A program made the translations under genes and the position numbers. Positions 1 through 42,793 of a DNA stretch of 42,793 bases are shown here, piece by piece; positions within the stretch are counted from its first letter, which is position 1; each line of letters begins with the position of its first letter. Location of the stretch: IMG/VR virus record IMGVR_UViG_2667527787_000008, one strand, 5' to 3'. The notes beneath the pieces were generated by a model that saw only the letters and a list, made by a program, of their open reading frames with translations, made no database searches and had not been told where the DNA came from. This DNA is from a virus. Lineage: Duplodnaviria > Heunggongvirae > Uroviricota > Caudoviricetes.

Positions 1-1194
1 ATGATCACCGACACAAAGCTCAGGAAGGCGCTCGGCAAGAAAAGAGATGATATCGAGATTATTTCTGATTCGCACGGGCTCAACGCCAGAATCAGCCAGG
101 CCGGAAAAATATCATTTTTCTATCGGTATCGCTGGGCCGGTAAAGCGGTAAAACTCAATGTTGGTGATTATCCTGCAATGAGTATCACCCAGGCAAGAGA
201 GCGTCGCCAACAATTCAGAAACTGGTTAACTGAGGGACTGGATCCGCGAGAGCAGGTGAAGCTGGATAAGCAGACCCGACAGGAAGCGATGTCCGTTGCC
301 GAAGCGTTCAATTACTGGATTGAAAGGCACTGTATCGCTAACGGGCTAGTTAAAGTCGATTACTATCGCCAGGTGTTTGAGAAACATATCGCCGAACCGA
401 TGAAGAATGTCAAAGTCGATAACACAGCGAAAATGCACTGGATCAACGTCTTCGATTCTATAGAAAGCAGGGTGATGGCTCATTACATGCTTTCGCTGTG
501 CAAACGGGCCTTTAGGTTCTGCGTTAACAGAAGTGTGATCGCCTCAAACCCACTCGAGGGATTACTGCCATCTGATGTCGGGCAAAAGCCTAAAAAGAGA
601 ACTCGCAGGATGGACGATGACGATCTGCGCAAAATCTATCAGTGGTTGAAAAGCCATATGTCGATAGAGTCCGTTTTCCTGGTGAAATTTATTATGCTTA
701 CCGGATGCCGTACGGCTGAGATTCGACTTAGTGAGAGATCATGGTTTCGATTGGATGATAATGAGTGGGTCGTGCCTGCGGGCAGTTATAAAACTCGGGT
801 ACATATTAGAAGGGGACTCTCAGACGCCGCCGTTAACCTGGTCAGAAATCACCTCAAGAAAATAAACACCAATCACCTGGTGACTTCACAACGTAAAATT
901 GATGGCGGGATCAAAGATTCGCCCGTTCATTCACCTGTGGCATCCAATTACGCCCGTTCTATTTGGAATGGAACAGGTATGGCAGAGTGGTCGCTTCATG
1001 ATATGAGGCGGACGATAGCCACAAATCTCTCTGAGTTAGGTTGCCCGCCGCACGTAATTGAAAAGCTGCTCGGGCATCAGATGGTGGGGGTTATGGCGCA
1101 TTACAACCTTCATGACTATATCGATGATCAGAAACACTGGCTCCGCGTTTGGCAGAGCCATCTTGAAGAGATCATCGGAGAGCCCTTCAGTTAA
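1..1194 (+). CDS. int: Tyrosine recombinase / phage integrase, P4-type with N-terminal arm-binding domain
   Basis: 397 aa ORF; N-terminus [14 protein letters not shown]...[10 protein letters not shown] typical of P4-family integrases; C-terminal catalytic region with HDMRRT, LLGH and HY motifs. Confidence 0.85.
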
Positions 1195-1433
1195 TTTATC
1201 TTCTTTTTATCCTCCCACTCTTTGATTGACTCAGAGCGCCAGCGGTTAGGGTTGCCGGGCCAGTCAGGGGGTGGGAACGGGCATACGAAGCCCCGAGGCA
1301 TTGTGTCTGCACTTTGCCATGACCAAAGGGTTTTGCGTGAAATTTTGTAGCGACTGGTCAGGTCTGACGTTACCAAAATATCATCCATAGCTCTCTCCAG
1401 TTGCCCGTTCGGGCCATTCAAAATCTTTTTCAA
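1191..1433 (-). CDS. AlpA/Xis-family excisionase-like winged-helix regulator
   Basis: 80 aa; motif SRKTLWSWQ...[21 protein letters not shown] resembles the AlpA/Xis pattern (FP.P...RW...W); adjacent to int. Confidence 0.55.
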
Positions 1434-1710: not shown

Positions 1711-2829
1711 TCAGGCCACGTATTCCGGTTTCATATCCGCCAGGGTGATGCTGAATTGATCGTGCAGTTCATCGCCTAAGTGACGCTTTGAAGATGCAAG
1801 CATGCGCTCGGCTTCAGCGAACCGTTCGGATGCATGCGGCTCGTCGGGCTGGGGCAGGGATTTAATAGCCTCCTCAACCTTGTTGCGTGCATCCACTAGG
1901 TAATAACGCTTTACGGCTTTGTTTTTCAGCTCGGTGAATAGTGCGGATCCCAGCGTAGCTTTCGCCGTTTCAATGTCGGCACGCAGCGATTTGGCGCTAT
2001 CCACGTCCTGAGCAGATTCGATGCGTTCGCGGAAATCATCGGCAAGAGAGTCGACATTTACCGACGATTCCTGTGCGCTTTGCGTGGTTGTGACGGTGTC
2101 ACCTGAGATATCAGCCAGGCTAACGCGTTGCGGCGTTGGGTTGATCTCTTTTTCTGTGCGCTGTTCAATCTCATCAGGGGTGTACACACCAAGAACAACT
2201 GCAGGGCAATACAGGCGCGCCCAGTATTTGAGTGCCAGATAAGCGATCTGCTGTTTCGGGTTTGATACCCAAAGTGGAGAATTACGTGTGATTACGCTGG
2301 AGAGGAAAACAGGCTCTCCCCAGGTGATATCACTTTCACCGCGAATAACGGCACCTACCCGTACCGACAGTCCTTGTTCATCAGCACTTTCCCAACCGCG
2401 TACCATTTCTTTCTTGTCGTACGTCCCGCCACCTTTCGCAGGCTTTTTAACGGTTATCTCGCGGCTGCTGGCACATTTCGACCAGTCGCCCTCGTACTCA
2501 TAGTGAAAGCGGCCAACGATGGCGTTTGAGCTGGAGATCACCGCATTAACCAGTTGCGCTTCGTATCCCAGGACACCGTTAACCAGGTGCGTCTTTTGCG
2601 CCACGGCGTAAGGGTTCATACCCCACTGCATCGCCTGCATGATGATGGCCATGCAGTCTGCCGGATTGCCGCGGAGGTGCTCAGGCACCGTTACGGCTGC
2701 CTGTGCCATCAACCCGGCGACAGACTGAAGCTGGGTTAAAGCCTGCACGTTGAAAATGGCATTGCTGGCTGAGATCGTGTTTGGAGTCTGCTGTTCAGCG
2801 GTTACGATATTCGTGTTTTCCATCATCAT
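1711..2829 (-). CDS. RecT/Red-beta-like single-strand annealing recombinase
   Basis: 372 aa ORF immediately downstream of the RecE-like gene; motif QWGMNPYAVAQKTHLVNGVLGYEAQL resembles the conserved core of RecT/Bet annealing proteins. Confidence 0.5.
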   Translation of the reverse strand: MMMENTNIVTAEQQTPNTISASNAIFNVQALTQLQSVAGLMAQAAVTVPEHLRGNPADCMAIIMQAMQWGMNPYAVAQKTHLVNGVLGYEAQLVNAVISSSNAIVGRFHYEYEGDWSKCASSREITVKKPAKGGGTYDKKEMVRGWESADEQGLSVRVGAVIRGESDITWGEPVFLSSVITRNSPLWVSNPKQQIAYLALKYWARLYCPAVVLGVYTPDEIEQRTEKEINPTPQRVSLADISGDTVTTTQSAQESSVNVDSLADDFRERIESAQDVDSAKSLRADIETAKATLGSALFTELKNKAVKRYYLVDARNKVEEAIKSLPQPDEPHASERFAEAERMLASSKRHLGDELHDQFSITLADMKPEYVA

Positions 2830-2834
2830 TCCCC

Positions 2835-5800
2835 TTATGCCTGAGTACGCAGCGCTTCAAGGCGGCGCAGGTCGAAGTCGTTCAGTTCGTCGGTGTAGTC
2901 AGCAGTGATTGGCGCTGGCCATTCACCTGTGTCGAATCCGGTTGCGATATTGCGCATCGCTTTGCGGTACTCGAGCATACCCAGCTCCAGTAGTTCAGCG
3001 GATGCCTCGATGATGGCGATCCAGTGGTAGTTCTCGTCTTTGTTGACGAAAATCCAGAAGAACTGATCCAGCGCTGCGGTTTCGCAGTACATAGCCGCGC
3101 TCAGGTGATAATCACGTTCAATAATTTCCCGGTGTAGCCTGGCGCGCAGGCTTTCCTGCTTAACATTCCACATGCTGATGGTTTTCAGGTCAGCACCGAT
3201 ACGCACGCCGTCTAGGTCGATCTCAAGGTCAGGGCGCACACGAACTTCCAGTCCCGTCTCCTCGTCAAAGCCAAAGTAGCTCACCTCAACGGCGCGGCTC
3301 GGGTGGGTTAGCAGCATGCCTGCGGTCGGGTGCGAGAGCAGTGCTGACTGAATTGCCTGCGCGGTGGCAAGTTGCTGGTGGGTAACCAGCACTTTCCCTT
3401 CCGGGTTGTTGCGCCACGCATCGAGCAGCTCGTCGGCGAACACTGCATCTGGTTTGACTGCCTTCACGGCCTGAATCAGATCGGCCTTCGTGCCAGAGAC
3501 TTTCAGCGGTTGCAGCTTCTGAGCTTCCTGCGCGACCAGGTCAGGATTGATAATCGCAAGTTGTTCGAGTAGTGCGTCGCGGCTGCCGCTGGTTTTAATC
3601 TGCGCTGGCAGGGTGGCGTTGTACTCTTTGATGCACGCCTTCATTGCTGTTGCTGTCTTCTTCTGATCTGCATCGATACGTTGGAATTCAGCTGGCAGCG
3701 CCATATAGTTCTGCGCCGTTTCATCCAGGCTAGCGCCCAGCGGCACCAGCGCTGGCAGGGTGGCGTTGTATTCATCCAGCAAAGCTTTGATATCGTCTGC
3801 GCTCAGTTGCGCTGGCAGGCTGGCGTTGTACTCATCAATAAACGCGCGGATCGTTGCCGTGGTGGTAAATGCACCTTCCGGAATTACGGGTTCAACGCTA
3901 AATTCTTCATCGAGCTGTTCTGGCTGCAACGCCAGCGCATGTACCAGGTTTCCCATGTCCAGCACTGAGGAGCGCTCTTTGACGATGGTTTTCTCAACGT
4001 GGCGCGCATTGAAGTACATCAGCGAAACGCGCGCATCTTTTACCTGGGTGGAACTGATGCCGTTGGCAGCGTGGTAAACCTCGTTCGGCAGACCTTCATA
4101 GCGCCCAGGCTCGAAGTAATCGGGGTAAAAAACAGCTTGTTCGTCAGATTGCGCCTCTGGCTCGACGTGTGCCAAAACTGGTTCAGTCTGGTTTACAGAA
4201 TCGCTATTTTGAGCGACAGATTCCGTATTTTGGTTTACATCGGCCTGCTGGCCGGGATGTGACTCTTCACCAGTTTCCAGACTGCTTTCGCCTGACTGCA
4301 TTTCATTACCAACATTTTTTTCATCACTGACAGTTTCTTGAACCTGCACATTGCTGGTGGTTTCCGTAGCCTGTTTCGTGCCATGAGTTGCTGAGTTCTG
4401 CAGTAAAGCCGTAACATCGAATATTCCGTTGCCGACATTTTTAACCAGTTCTTGTTCGGCTTTATGTGGTTGTGCTGTCGCTTCCTCTGCGCGGCGGCGT
4501 GCTTCTTCTTCACGTACGCGTTGCAGGTTCTCTTCGTGAGTGCAGAAGGGTTTGCGTGGAGACTCCTTACTTTCAGGTTGGGGAATTTCCTGTGTTGCGG
4601 GCTCAGCTTCATGCAATGGCAATAACTCAACAGCAGCATTAAACGCAGCAGTCATGGTCCGGTTAACAAACTCCAGGTGAGCGACAGGAGTTAGATGAAT
4701 ATTTTCCGGCGCGATACGTATCAGGTTAAAAATAGCTGTGCGGTTAACGCCAAGAACGCCGGGTTGATTGCGCAGAATGCTGCTCCATGATTTCCACGGT
4801 TCTTCTTTTTTGGTCACGATTTCTTTAGCGCGACGAAGAATGCTGCCCGGGATCTCGAAGTGGTTGAAGTCCATAGGCAGAAGGGCACATGCAATCTCTA
4901 AATCGAGAGTGTCAAGGGTATGGTATGCATCAGGTCCACGGTCAGTGACGTAACCGCCGTTGGCATTGGTTCCGGAATCAGTACGCTGAACACTACTGAT
5001 GTGATTACCGGCAGCCCATTCACGCGCCAGGATGCCACGGTCAATGTAATCAGTCGCCGCCCACATTCTGGTGAAACGGAGTACCAGCGCGAGTTCGTGA
5101 CGCTTGTCCTGGCTGAACACTTTGCGAATGGCATCGGTGTAGCGCCACAGGTCTTTGGTGTCGTAACCCTTCACGTCCGGGCAGTTCTCAGCAGCTAACA
5201 GCAAGTTCTGGACGTAACTGTTATCAGTGTCCATCTCCAGCGCGCCGATAGCTTCGTACTCTTCGCGGGTTACGTGGTGGCGCAGTTCGTCGGCGGTGAA
5301 CTGGGAAAGCAGTTGCTTACGAAACGGCATCTGCACTACCGGGTAGAGGGTTGAGTCGTCGTCGTGTTCGTCCAGCGTGATGCCAGCGGTTTCTGGCAGC
5401 GTTGACTCAGTAGTTATGTGACTATCAACGGTCTGAGCCGTTTTCTCGTCAGAGTTTTCAGCTGTGACTTTTGGCATCCAGGTGCGGTCATCGTTCTGCA
5501 GTTCGTAGCGTTTGCACCAGGTGTAATCCACTGCGCCTTCTTCCGGCAGGTCGTCATATACCGGGAAATCGGTGCGGATTGGTTTGGCATAATCTTTACC
5601 GCGGCCAGTTTCTTCAATTCCGGCTTCTTCCAGTGCCACATCGAGTTGGAGATTGGCGCGCGCTACACTTTTCGCAGTGAACCAAATCACTGCATCTTTC
5701 TTGCCAGACTTCTGACTGGCTTTTATCAGATGGAAAAATTCCATGTGAGATCCTCTTTTTTGAGTGTTAGAATCCCCGGGCCAGAGATAGCGCCCATTGG

Positions 5801-5849
5801 ATGTTTTTTGGTTTGGTATAAATTCCGGTGTAACTTTGGTCGGTGGCAC
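2835..5849 (-). CDS. RecE-like exonuclease VIII (large multidomain protein, C-terminal nuclease domain)
   Basis: 1004 aa ORF, GTG start; position upstream of the RecT-like gene as in Rac recE-recT; central tandem EYNA(S/T)LPA repeats. Confidence 0.5.
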   Translation of the reverse strand: MPPTKVTPEFIPNQKTSNGRYLWPGDSNTQKRGSHMEFFHLIKASQKSGKKDAVIWFTAKSVARANLQLDVALEEAGIEETGRGKDYAKPIRTDFPVYDDLPEEGAVDYTWCKRYELQNDDRTWMPKVTAENSDEKTAQTVDSHITTESTLPETAGITLDEHDDDSTLYPVVQMPFRKQLLSQFTADELRHHVTREEYEAIGALEMDTDNSYVQNLLLAAENCPDVKGYDTKDLWRYTDAIRKVFSQDKRHELALVLRFTRMWAATDYIDRGILAREWAAGNHISSVQRTDSGTNANGGYVTDRGPDAYHTLDTLDLEIACALLPMDFNHFEIPGSILRRAKEIVTKKEEPWKSWSSILRNQPGVLGVNRTAIFNLIRIAPENIHLTPVAHLEFVNRTMTAAFNAAVELLPLHEAEPATQEIPQPESKESPRKPFCTHEENLQRVREEEARRRAEEATAQPHKAEQELVKNVGNGIFDVTALLQNSATHGTKQATETTSNVQVQETVSDEKNVGNEMQSGESSLETGEESHPGQQADVNQNTESVAQNSDSVNQTEPVLAHVEPEAQSDEQAVFYPDYFEPGRYEGLPNEVYHAANGISSTQVKDARVSLMYFNARHVEKTIVKERSSVLDMGNLVHALALQPEQLDEEFSVEPVIPEGAFTTTATIRAFIDEYNASLPAQLSADDIKALLDEYNATLPALVPLGASLDETAQNYMALPAEFQRIDADQKKTATAMKACIKEYNATLPAQIKTSGSRDALLEQLAIINPDLVAQEAQKLQPLKVSGTKADLIQAVKAVKPDAVFADELLDAWRNNPEGKVLVTHQQLATAQAIQSALLSHPTAGMLLTHPSRAVEVSYFGFDEETGLEVRVRPDLEIDLDGVRIGADLKTISMWNVKQESLRARLHREIIERDYHLSAAMYCETAALDQFFWIFVNKDENYHWIAIIEASAELLELGMLEYRKAMRNIATGFDTGEWPAPITADYTDELNDFDLRRLEALRTQA

Positions 5850-39174: not shown

Positions 39175-39953
39175 TGGCTGGAACTAATGATTTTAAAGCG
39201 TTTGCGACAGATGCTAATGCAAATGTTACCTCGCAGGAGGAATGGGAGACGCTAACCGCACTGAAGAAAGGATTCTCCTCGGGTAAAGCATCCAGCGCAC
39301 AGGTCAGTAAAGCGCTGCGCCAACCGTCGACGATGGCGGCTGTACTGGGGCAGTTTATCGCGAACGCCGAACTGGACGCGCTCGATGATGGTGACGTTGA
39401 TGGACTGGTGGCAAAGCTGGCGACAGCGATTACCACAAACCTTGGTTTGGGAGAAGGCTCAGCATTACCCGTTGGCGTACCTGTTCCGTGGCCTTCAGCC
39501 ACACCGCCGACAGGCTGGCTGAAATGCAACGGTGCCGCTTTTTCTGCTGAAGAATACCCGGAACTGGCAAAGGCTTACCCGACAAATAAATTGCCTGATT
39601 TACGTGGTGAGTTTATTCGTGGCTGGGATGACGGGCGTGGAGTGGATAGCGGTCGTACTTTATTAACGAATCAAGAGCATGCAGTAATTTCTCATAATCA
39701 TGGAATACCTACAAAAGTGGGGTCAGTTACTAATATCCCGTATGGAATAGAACAGGTTATATCTGATGAAACCATTTTTTCATCAGCAAAAACAGTTGGT
39801 GTGGATTACTGGTCTAACAGTGAAAGAGTTTTTACTTATACCTCTGGTGGAAGAAATGGTGCTGAATCAGTGAGTTCACCTGATGCCTCCTCTTTAATTA
39901 AAGAAACCAGACCACGGAACCTAGCATTTGCGTATATCGTGAGGGCTGCATAA
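39174..39953 (+). CDS. Tail fibre protein (constant N-terminus plus currently expressed variable C-terminus, Sv)
   Basis: GWLKCNGAAFSAEEYPELAKAYPTNKLPDLRGEFIRGWDDGRG tail-collar-type motif; inversion crossover site at codon about 96; AT-rich 3-prime part. Confidence 0.7.
   Translation: MAGTNDFKAFATDANANVTSQEEWETLTALKKGFSSGKASSAQVSKALRQPSTMAAVLGQFIANAELDALDDGDVDGLVAKLATAITTNLGLGEGSALPVGVPVPWPSATPPTGWLKCNGAAFSAEEYPELAKAYPTNKLPDLRGEFIRGWDDGRGVDSGRTLLTNQEHAVISHNHGIPTKVGSVTNIPYGIEQVISDETIFSSAKTVGVDYWSNSERVFTYTSGGRNGAESVSSPDASSLIKETRPRNLAFAYIVRAA
39432..39457. other. Left crossover site of the invertible tail-fibre segment (gix/hix-like)
   Basis: ACCACAAACC-TT-GGTTTGGGAGAA; inner half-site repeated in inverted orientation at the right site. 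Confidence 0.5.
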
Positions 39954-40555
39954 TGGTGAAAGCAAAATTAAACAGTGCGTTTATTGCCACCGTGGCAGGT
40001 GAAATCACTGTGTACAACTACCGGGGCGACACCCGCGAATACATATCCTCATCGGTTGAGTATCTGCCTGTGGGGGTGGGTATTCCTGCCAATTCCTGTA
40101 CCGATGCGCCCGGCACACATAAAGCTGGTTATGCAATCTGCCGTTCTGCAGATTTTAACTCATGGGAATATGTGCCAGACCATCGCGGTGAAACGGTATA
40201 TAGCACTGAAACAGGAGAATCAAAAGAAATCACAGCTCCGGGTGATTACTCTGAAAATACAACTACTATCGCCCCGTTAACGCCATTCGATAAATGGGAT
40301 GGTGAGAAATGGGTGACCGATACTGAGGCACAGCATAGCGCCGCAGTAGACGTGGCAGAAGCACAGCGCCAGTCGCTGATTGATGCTGCTATGGCTTCCA
40401 TCAGTCTGATTCAGCTGAAATTGCAGGCCGGGCGGCAACTGACGCAAGCAGAAATCACTCGCCTTAACGCTGTGCTGGATTACATTGACACGGTGACGGC
40501 AACAGATACCAGCACCGCGCCGGATGTCATCTGGCCTGAACTGCCGGAGGCGTAG
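39953..40555 (+). CDS. Tail fibre assembly protein (Tfa)
   Basis: 200 aa; C-terminal motif LNAVLDYIDTVTATDTSTAPDVIWPELP typical of the tail fibre assembly family. Confidence 0.7.
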   Translation: MVKAKLNSAFIATVAGEITVYNYRGDTREYISSSVEYLPVGVGIPANSCTDAPGTHKAGYAICRSADFNSWEYVPDHRGETVYSTETGESKEITAPGDYSENTTTIAPLTPFDKWDGEKWVTDTEAQHSAAVDVAEAQRQSLIDAAMASISLIQLKLQAGRQLTQAEITRLNAVLDYIDTVTATDTSTAPDVIWPELPEA

Positions 40556-40970
40556 GCCATTCAATATCTGGAGCACTGGAGGTATCAACCAGTTCCAGTG
40601 CGTCCAGATAATCCAGCCACAAATTATATTGCGCCAGTTCCTCACTTTTCAGACGACCAATCGCCGCTTTGCCAGGCCACTGATGAGTATTGATGTAGGT
40701 ATTGACTTCAGAAACCAAAGATATTTTTTTCATTTCAGCCGTCAACACCTCATCCTCTTTTGAAGGGGGTGGGGAATTAATCCATACTGGCCGTCCTGAA
40801 CTGTCAGCGCCAATTTCTTTCCCTTCTGGATGCAGCCCAAGAAATTGCTCATATGTTTCTCTGGTAATTTCAATAACATCATCAGGAAGCGTTCCCGCAT
40901 CCTCATATTCTGGAAACAATTCTTGCAGATAAAAACTTTTACTTCCGGGTGAAAAGAATACTGAGTTCAT
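40527..40970 (-). CDS. Alternative tail fibre assembly protein (Tfa-prime) within the invertible segment
   Basis: 147 aa; C-terminal LWLDYLDALELVDTSSAPDIEWPTPP paralogous to Tfa; convergent with and overlapping tfa. Confidence 0.65.
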   Translation of the reverse strand: MNSVFFSPGSKSFYLQELFPEYEDAGTLPDDVIEITRETYEQFLGLHPEGKEIGADSSGRPVWINSPPPSKEDEVLTAEMKKISLVSEVNTYINTHQWPGKAAIGRLKSEELAQYNLWLDYLDALELVDTSSAPDIEWPTPPAVQAR

Positions 40971-40972
40971 TC

Positions 40973-41425
40973 TTACCGTCCAATGATTAATGCTGAGACG
41001 CTGGTATCTGAAGGAAAGGCTGCATTCAGTGGTTTGTCGACTTTGAACACAATCGTATTATTCCCCCTGACAGCGGCAAAAGAACAAACCGCAGTCGCGT
41101 ATGAACCTGTAATATTACTGGATACACCACCATAAGCTGTTGTTGATACCAGAGGGATAACGCCCAGCACCTTATTAGGAAATACAAAGGGCAATGTGGC
41201 TGTGGCAATATAAGACTTATTAGAACCTGTAATGGCATAAGCATTATCAGTCATTCCATTCATCGCCACCGGGCCGCTTATACTTACAGTAACCATCTGA
41301 ATGATTAGCCCGTCAGGTTGACGAATCACAAAATTTCCATTGCCACCAGTAACCGTCCAGAAAGACATATCAGGGATTTGGTTTTCCCCGTTGCCCACAT
41401 TCCGTTTTGCCGCTTCTCCCAAACC
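40973..41425 (-). CDS. Promoterless alternative tail-fibre C-terminal segment (Sv-prime)
   Basis: Begins with GLGE encoded by GGTTTGGGAGAA, the same as the current junction in the expressed fibre; Gly/Thr/Ser-rich fibre-like composition. Confidence 0.6.
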   Translation of the reverse strand, partial: GLGEAAKRNVGNGENQIPDMSFWTVTGGNGNFVIRQPDGLIIQMVTVSISGPVAMNGMTDNAYAITGSNKSYIATATLPFVFPNKVLGVIPLVSTTAYGGVSSNITGSYATAVCSFAAVRGNNTIVFKVDKPLNAAFPSDTSVSALIIGR

Positions 41426-41439
41426 AACCTTTTTTATAA
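41414..41439. other. Right crossover site of the invertible segment (gix/hix-like)
   Basis: TTCTCCCAAACC-AA-CCTTTTTTATAA resembles Hin/Gin crossover sites; about 60 bp upstream of the invertase start. Confidence 0.5.
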
Positions 41440-41498
41440 CCATCAAAAATCTGGTGATGCTTCGCCGTTTCTCCTGTTTTCATAACAGGAGAAATCCC

Positions 41499-42047
41499 AT
41501 GATTTACGGTTATGCCCGAGTATCAACAAACCACCAGGACACTGAATTGCAACTAACGGCGCTCAAGTCAGCGGGTTGTGAGAAAATTTTTGAAGAGCAT
41601 GCCAGCGGGAGGAAATCGAATCGGCCGGTTCTAAAACGGCTGATCGCCACTATGCAGCCGGGGGATGAACTGGTGGTCTGGAAGCTGGACAGGATAGGCC
41701 GCAACGTTCTGCATGCGCTGTTGATGTTCCAGCAGTTACAGGAAAAGGGTATCAACTTCCGCAGTATTACCGATGGCGTGGATCTCAAAACAGCCAGCGG
41801 CCGCTATAACTTTCGTAACATCCTTTCCGCAGCACAATATGAATCTGATCTTAATAGCGAACGTACCTTAGCAGGGCTGGCCGTAGCCAGGGCAAAAGGG
41901 CGAGTTGGTGGTCGCAGGCCTAAGTTCACGGATGAGCAATGGCGGGAAATGGGGGAGCGGATGGCAACCGGTGAATCACGACAAAGCGTATCAAAAACGT
42001 ATGGAGTAGGGCTCTCAACTCTGTATAAAAAGTTTCCAGCTAGCTGA
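41499..42047 (+). CDS. Serine DNA invertase (Pin/Gin/Hin/Cin family)
   Basis: 182 aa MIYGYARVSTNHQDTELQLTALKSAGCEKIFEEHASG... with catalytic Ser in YARVST and C-terminal HTH; adjacent to the invertible segment. Confidence 0.85.
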   Translation: MIYGYARVSTNHQDTELQLTALKSAGCEKIFEEHASGRKSNRPVLKRLIATMQPGDELVVWKLDRIGRNVLHALLMFQQLQEKGINFRSITDGVDLKTASGRYNFRNILSAAQYESDLNSERTLAGLAVARAKGRVGGRRPKFTDEQWREMGERMATGESRQSVSKTYGVGLSTLYKKFPAS

Positions 42048-42067
42048 TAACGGGAAAGAAACAGAGA

Positions 42068-42105
42068 AGGGCACAAATATTGTGTACTTTAATGTGCCCT
42101 TTAAT
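42068..42105. terminator. Putative bidirectional terminator between invertase and yciI; probable prophage right boundary region
   Basis: Stem AGGGCACA / TGTGCCCT with long loop, T-rich on both sides. Confidence 0.3.
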
Positions 42106-42165
42106 TTATTGATTGGTGGTTGAATTGTCCGTAACTTTTTGATTTAAGTGCAAATTTCTAATAAA

Positions 42166-42462
42166 TTAGAACGCTTTCTTAAATGGTTTCACTGAAACGT
42201 GTTCATAGACTCCTGCCGCTACGTACGGGTCAGCATCGGCCCAGGCCTGAGCTGCTTCCAGCGATTCAAATTCAGCAATAACGGTTGAGCCAGTAAATCC
42301 CGCAGCCCCTGGATCGTTACTGTCTACCGCTGGCATTGGACCAGCTGTCAACAAACGACCTTCATCATGCAGTAACTGTAAACGTGCTAAATGTGCCGGA
42401 CGAACGGAAAGGCGTTTTTCGAGGCTATCAGCTTTGTCTTGAGCGTAAATAACATACAACAC
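42166..42462 (-). CDS. yciI: YciI-like protein (chromosomal)
   Basis: About 98 aa from GTG with AGGAG ribosome-binding site; adjacent to and divergent from tonB as in E. coli. Confidence 0.6.
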
Positions 42463-42604
42463 GGGCACAACTCCTTGTTCGGGAAAGTTGTAAAGTACGT
42501 TATTTGAAAGGGCGAAGATCTGCAACGGAAAGATGATGTCTTTGTTAAGGCCATGCATAAAGTAAGGGTAATTACGCCAAAAATGACATTTTCACTGATC
42601 CTGA

Positions 42605-42650
42605 TCGTCTTGCCTTATTGAATATGATTGCTATTTGCATTTAAAATCGA
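42605..42650 (+). promoter_or_regulatory. tonB promoter region with Fur-box-like sequence
   Basis: TTGAATATGATTGCTATTTGCATTTAAAATCGAGA upstream of the tonB start, AT-rich iron-box-like repeats. Confidence 0.4.
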
Positions 42651-42685
42651 GACCTGGTTTTTCTACTGAAATGATTATGACTTCA

Positions 42686-42793
42686 ATGACCCTTGATTTA
42701 CCTCGCCGCTTCCCCTGGCCGACGTTACTTTCGGTCTGCATTCATGGTGCTGTTGTGGCGGGTCTGCTCTATACCTCGGTACATCAGGTTATT
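42686..42793 (+). CDS. tonB: TonB, N-terminal fragment (truncated by the window end)
   Basis: Translation MTLDLPRRFPWPTLLSVCIHGAVVAGLLYTSVHQVI matches the TonB N-terminal anchor. Confidence 0.85.
   Translation, partial: MTLDLPRRFPWPTLLSVCIHGAVVAGLLYTSVHQVI

Follow-up and report, generated by a model that had tools for sequence, protein, structure and literature searches.

Phage and host DNA at the att80 site of yciI: the right end of a mosaic contractile-tail prophage of Escherichia coli

Genes of the prophage and of the flanking host locus

The window, that is the whole stretch of 42,793 nucleotides analysed here, opens at the ATG of a phage integrase gene, runs through a prophage and closes inside tonB. 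Its features are listed in Table 1. Position 1 is the int ATG according to RefSeq, and the phi80 start in GenBank is annotated 15 nt further upstream. The integrase contains an arm-binding domain (Pfam Arm-DNA-bind_3) and a tyrosine-recombinase catalytic domain (Phage_integrase), and its gene is 99.9% identical in DNA to those of phi80 and mEp237. Over window positions 1-1300, compared with int and xis of phi80, HK225, mEp237 and mEpX1, the DNA identity is 99.6-99.9%. The product of xis, the phi80 excisionase, is the directionality factor.

Table 1. Positions and basis of the features described in the text
Feature	Position	Strand	Basis or remark
int, phi80-type tyrosine integrase	1-1194	plus	397 aa, 0 differences from phi80 Int; window opens at its ATG
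xis, phi80 excisionase	1191-1388	minus	65 aa, 0 differences from phi80 Xis; annotated xis in phi80
Rac-like recT (372 aa) and recE (1004 aa)	1711-5849		straight after int-xis
Invertible tail-fibre segment, predicted Pin substrate, outside att	39430-41439		ends in 27-nt inverted crossover sites (39430-39456, 41413-41439); in the same right-end module
pin, Din-family serine DNA invertase	41499-42047	plus	Pfam Resolvase and HTH_7; the phage gene nearest to attR
P arm of phi80-type attP, phage DNA	42048-42167		120/120 bases equal to phi80 attP
P-arm hairpin, 9-bp stem, AAGGGCACA...TGTGCCCTT	42068-42102		centroid fold of both strands; inverted repeat in phi80
TTGTGTAC, candidate arm-type Int site in the hairpin loop	42080-42087		one copy in the window
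IHF-binding site of the P arm, TAACTTTTTGATT	42132-42144		IHF protein_bind annotated in phi80 JX871397 24584-24596; window identical
yciI	42166-42462	minus	GTG start, 98 aa, Pfam YCII E=4e-33; last 5 codons and stop in core and P arm
att80 common core in attR, AGAACGCTTTCTTAAAT	42168-42184		annotated core in phi80 and HK225; 16/17 bases canonical
yciI-tonB divergent control region	42463-42685		K-12-identical; promoter scan
tonB promoter-like site, TTGAAT-18-TAAAAT	42618-42647		promoter scan
tonB 5' end, first 36 codons	42686-42793	plus	residues 1-36 equal to K-12 TonB; gene continues past the window

The prophage of E. coli strain ES7 is 99.95% identical to window positions 1-39456 and lies between kch and yciI, with an intact kch beside int. 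Its annotation shows a Rac-like early region with recE, recT and ydaT, lambdoid Q, rusA and lysis genes, and a late region for a contractile tail, including a DUF3383 sheath-like protein, baseplate J and a spike. A gene of the ydaT-type toxin family is present in the immunity region of the window. When the late region (17000-41500) was compared with a phage collection, at most 19% of it was covered, at about 75% identity, by the best matches listed, and phi80 was not among these. The phi80 matches in the collection are confined to positions 41361-42187 and 1-1300. Phage phi80 is a lambdoid siphovirus, and the early region of the window is of a lineage other than that of phi80. The prophage itself is distinct from phi80, being a mosaic with a contractile tail that carries the pin-attP-int-xis module of phi80.

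Pin differs from the HK225 invertase by one amino acid, and the PinL of phi80 is the same protein without its last 10 residues. A small serine recombinase accompanied by inverted sites around a tail-fibre segment places Pin in the Din family. Like Gin of Mu, Cin of P1, Pin of e14 and Hin, Pin combines the Resolvase and HTH_7 domains and is found with a segment of about 2 kb that is bounded by 27-nt sites with a AAACCnnGGTTT centre. The inverted site TTACCACAAACCTTGGTTTGGGAGAAG and its partner lie inside the tail-fibre gene and upstream of pin, and they enclose two opposed sets of fibre C-terminus and assembly genes. The match to the ES7 prophage is lost exactly at 39456 and returns at 41366, and therefore the content of the segment was swapped as a cassette. 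The best-matching complete genomes likewise depart from the window within this segment. A role of Pin as the integrating recombinase was considered and rejected, since the protein is a small invertase and its inverted sites flank the fibre segment. It takes no part in forming the chromosomal junction, where its gene is simply the last of the prophage.

While the window has a full-length Pin and an intact segment, phi80 keeps only about 85 nt of the segment next to the shortened PinL. Besides the right inversion site and these 85 nt or so of the alternate fibre gene, the alignment of 41361-42187 with phi80 (2314-3140 of the compared record) includes pin, the core and the P arm, with identities of 94-96% for phi80 and mEp237. 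The pinL region of phi80 looks like a decayed relic of the invertible system that is intact in the window.

The host side begins with the 3' end of yciI. The first-pass annotation had named yciI and tonB as the flanking genes, and both hold: the Pfam family and the TonB residues agree (Table 1), host DNA from 42185 to 42793 has 0 mismatches to K-12 in 609 nt, and tonB is annotated as such in all matching genomes. For the tonB promoter that it had found recognisable, the promoter scan gave a promoter-like site (Table 1). In the empty K-12 locus the order is kch, a 299-bp spacer, yciI and tonB, which together with the ES7 prophage supports the earlier placement of the element between the kch side and yciI on an E. 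coli chromosome.

The att80 core and its one-base variant

A megablast search with positions 41900-42793 matched 5423 of the 5426 complete E. coli genomes. These matches at yciI-tonB show that the junction is real and that the host locus is the one first named. In 132 of the 5426 genomes, those with a query coverage of 80% or more, the invertase gene also ends beside yciI, as expected of the right junction of a prophage that had been proposed. The comparison with an unoccupied yciI-tonB locus, which had been suggested as a check, gave an alignment to K-12 with its start at 42168 and full identity from 42185 up to the window end. On the phage side, positions 42048-42184 differ from phi80 attP by a single mismatch, at 42173. 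These two boundaries place the junction at a core of 17 bp (42168-42184), which is inside the 3' end of yciI and covers its last codons and stop. The canonical core, AGAACACTTTCTTAAAT, is present in the attP of phi80, HK225, mEp237 and mEpX1, in K-12 attB and in ES7 attL. The window core departs from it only by G for A at 42173, core position 6.

The att core had been regarded as undefinable without the left junction, but three comparisons define it: with the empty K-12 site, with the four annotated attP and with the attL of the ES7 prophage. The window itself opens at the int ATG, and its own left junction lies beyond it, where attL is expected about 187 bp left of position 1 from phi80 and ES7. 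In the three-way comparison, empty K-12 attB reads ...tattcAGAACACTTTCTTAAATggtttcac (longer form ...tctattcAGAACACTTTCTTAAATggtttcactg), the window attR reads ...aaattAGAACGCTTTCTTAAATggtttcac (longer form ...ataaattAGAACGCTTTCTTAAATggtttcactg), and ES7 attL reads ...tattcAGAACACTTTCTTAAATtgtcatttgg (longer form ...tctattcAGAACACTTTCTTAAATtgtcatttgg), followed by the phi80 P' arm. The prophage layout is attL(BOP')-int-xis ... late genes ... pin-attR(POB'). The right end of the window is almost certainly an attR composed of P arm, core and B' arm, produced by a lambda-type Int-mediated insertion at att80 in the 3' end of yciI. The phi80 prophage has been located in the yciI gene (PMC5727415), the attB site has been described within the yciI 3' end (PMC13449921), and insertion at this end, between kch and tonB, is documented (PMC11148124, PMC13449921, PMC5727415). 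The att80 junction is a long-known and ordinary feature, to which our analysis adds the core variant, an occupancy of about 2% and a note on the ancestry of the module.

The variant base changes the protein. The C-terminus of YciI is ...KKVF-TGA in K-12, ...KKVF-TAA at a canonical phi80-type attR and ...KKAF-TAA in the window, so that the window protein differs from that of K-12 by V97A and its gene has TAA in place of TGA as stop. The distribution of the variant was determined in the 5426 complete genomes with 46-mer queries that could seed only via an exact word across the variant base. An attR with G at core position 6 was found in 12 genomes (ES7 and NCTC11023 are examples of such lysogens) and an attR with A in 105, while the same genomes gave 0 empty attB and 0 attL with G. 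All four sequenced attP (phi80, HK225, mEp237 and mEpX1) have A at this position, and G was thus absent from the attP of these free phages. The G-type attR occurs on at least four host haplotypes, which show 10-30 SNPs per 2.9 kb and at least five TonB protein accessions, and which differ by 4-6 SNPs already within the first 609 nt after the core. Of eight sequences compared over 700 nt on the phage side, one of them the window, five show 0-2 base differences, and three have insertions or a divergent pin and are out of register.

From this distribution, G at 42173 is probably a phage-borne variant of attP on the P side of the core. A base on that side requires a crossover to the right of 42173, and the crossover region would then be the 11 bp CTTTCTTAAAT (42174-42184). 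The G may instead have arisen by mutation after integration in one lysogen and spread by homologous recombination, in which case it would be uninformative on strand exchange. The A in the attP of all four sequenced free phages and the small number of genomes with G are in keeping with such an origin, and so is the near invariance of the adjacent pin-P arm module, as recent common descent predicts. However, the host haplotypes diverge right after the core, and therefore the spreading recombination would need to end at the junction every time. The cargo left of pin also varies widely among the G-type genomes. We consider a mutation after integration unlikely. We lean, by a modest degree, towards G as an attP heterology of a phage lineage that maps the exchange to CTTTCTTAAAT, with the pinL gene and the tail-collar fragment of phi80 as fossils of an invertible fibre system that this contractile-tail prophage family keeps intact, and pin-attP-int-xis moved whole between unrelated phage types.

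The P arm and the proposed insertion

The P arm is the same, base for base, in the attP of phi80, mEp237 and mEpX1. This bears on the first-pass annotation, which had ended the phage within about 120 bp of the yciI stop and proposed a search of the left flank for a direct repeat of 42050-42165. An insertion in the kch-yciI spacer, with 42050-42165 as host or junction DNA repeated at the left, would be suggested by the non-coding gap of 118 bp that separates the stop codons of pin (42047) and yciI (42166). However, every base of this gap is that of the P arm in these three phages, the K-12 spacer (about 299-301 nt) has zero 14-mers in common with the whole window, K-12 identity begins only at 42168, and the repeat in common with ES7 attL is the 17-bp core. 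Phage DNA extends into yciI, and insertion in the spacer is highly improbable.

Several elements were found in the P arm. The reverse complement of the IHF site, AATCAAAAAGTTA, agrees with the IHF consensus WATCAANNNNTTR, and HK225 as well as phi80 has an IHF site in its annotation along with the attP core. In the lysogen the hairpin takes the place of the native one downstream of yciI, and transcription of pin (plus strand) and of the rebuilt yciI (minus strand) might both terminate at it. The terminator scan gave no call for 42068-42102 and the folding z-scores are weak (-1.3 and -1.9), so the terminator role is put forward tentatively. An Rfam scan of 41400-42793 returned zero RNA families at E<=1. 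The TTGTGTAC motif in the hairpin loop has relatives in the phi80 P' arm, which holds three copies of (T/A)TGTGTAC. Since the single copy in the window is insignificant by itself (at least one copy in 48 of 100 shuffles), the argument for an arm site comes from the three phi80 copies, and we propose that all of them may be arm-type Int sites.

By analogy with lambda Int, the insertion may be pictured as follows. In the circular phage genome, attP would have the order pin, 120-bp P arm, 17-bp core, P' arm of about 185 bp and int. The heterobivalent phi80-type Int would bind the arm sites and the core while host IHF bends the arms, would pair the attP core with the identical core in yciI, and would exchange strands within the core. 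In the lysogen the P arm abuts yciI, rebuilding its last codons and supplying the TAA stop and a new downstream sequence, and the P' arm and int come to lie beside kch. Xis, together with Int and IHF, would reverse the reaction. For phi80 itself, Int/IHF-dependent integration and Xis-dependent excision are known. The lambda system (Int/Xis/IHF at attB, gal-bio) appears comparable in its prophage layout and in its heterobivalent Int with an arm-binding domain, but its core, arms and chromosomal site are different. While lambda attB is intergenic, att80 is inside the end of a coding gene, which gets rebuilt. A Mu-like transposable prophage, in which the junction would be a transposition end at a random site with a 5-bp target duplication, would have the same layout of a serine invertase and an invertible fibre segment last before host DNA. 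This reading has a negligible probability: the integrase of the window is of the tyrosine type and, like the excisionase, equal to its phi80 counterpart, zero transposases are annotated in the near-identical ES7 prophage, and at least 117 genomes have the same junction at the same fixed site, with the sequence of a known attP.

Module relatives and occupancy of att80

The window contains these parts of a phi80-type module: Int, Xis on the opposite strand, the core with 16 of 17 bases, a P arm with an IHF site and the yciI site. With phi80 (Lula; JX871397, X04051) it shares the Int and Xis proteins, the complete P arm, the IHF site and the location in the kch-tonB interval, where both occupy the yciI 3' end, but phi80 has A at core position 6 and the rest of the window prophage is unrelated to it. 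HK225, mEp237 and mEpX1 have the same pin-attP-int-xis module, with identities of 97-99.6% for pin and P arm and 99.6-99.9% for int, and their attP is annotated as phi80-like or as similar to yciI. They differ from the window in their structural genes (lambda/N15/HK022-like tails by annotation) and in the A of the core. Searched as one query, positions 41400-42200 matched HK225 (99.6%), mEp237 (97.1%), phi80 (94.6%) and mEpX1 (98.9% over 66% of the query), and in all four the matching region is annotated as a DNA invertase followed by attP.

This attR at yciI is present in about 117-132 of the 5426 complete E. coli genomes. In EcPF16 (39195-46948 of the examined locus) and KFu022 (1-2900), the G-type attR is the sole prophage remnant. 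There, an IS3 splits pin, kch is truncated at its N-terminus, and the gap is occupied by an acyltransferase gene and by several copies of IS1, two of which have a corA/ysgD block annotated between them. An acyltransferase-family gene also lies directly upstream of pin in some att80 occupants (88COLEC 1226-2209; EcPF16 44386-44946), and it may be O-antigen or surface-modifying cargo of the prophage right end. The strains XL10-Gold (NZ_CP081008.1) and JCL301 (NZ_CP107281.1) have the canonical A-type phi80 attR at yciI, consistent with phi80dlacZ-type constructs or with the spread of phi80 among laboratories, which is known (PMC5727415).

These results have consequences for annotation and for strain work. 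The right boundary of this prophage belongs within yciI, at 42168-42184, and not where pin ends, and the element should be labelled as a user of att80. The site is taken in about 2% of complete E. coli genomes, mostly by prophages other than phi80 or by IS-riddled remnants. The phi80-attP integration vectors use the att80 site (PMC2532685), and its occupancy is relevant where such vectors or phi80 junction PCR are used in wild strains. If the G is indeed a heterology of attP, the phage would be able to rewrite the C-terminus of a host protein at its insertion site, here through V97A and the change of TGA to TAA in YciI. The core variant and the common pin-attP-int-xis block add a little to the existing knowledge of mosaic exchange of integration modules.
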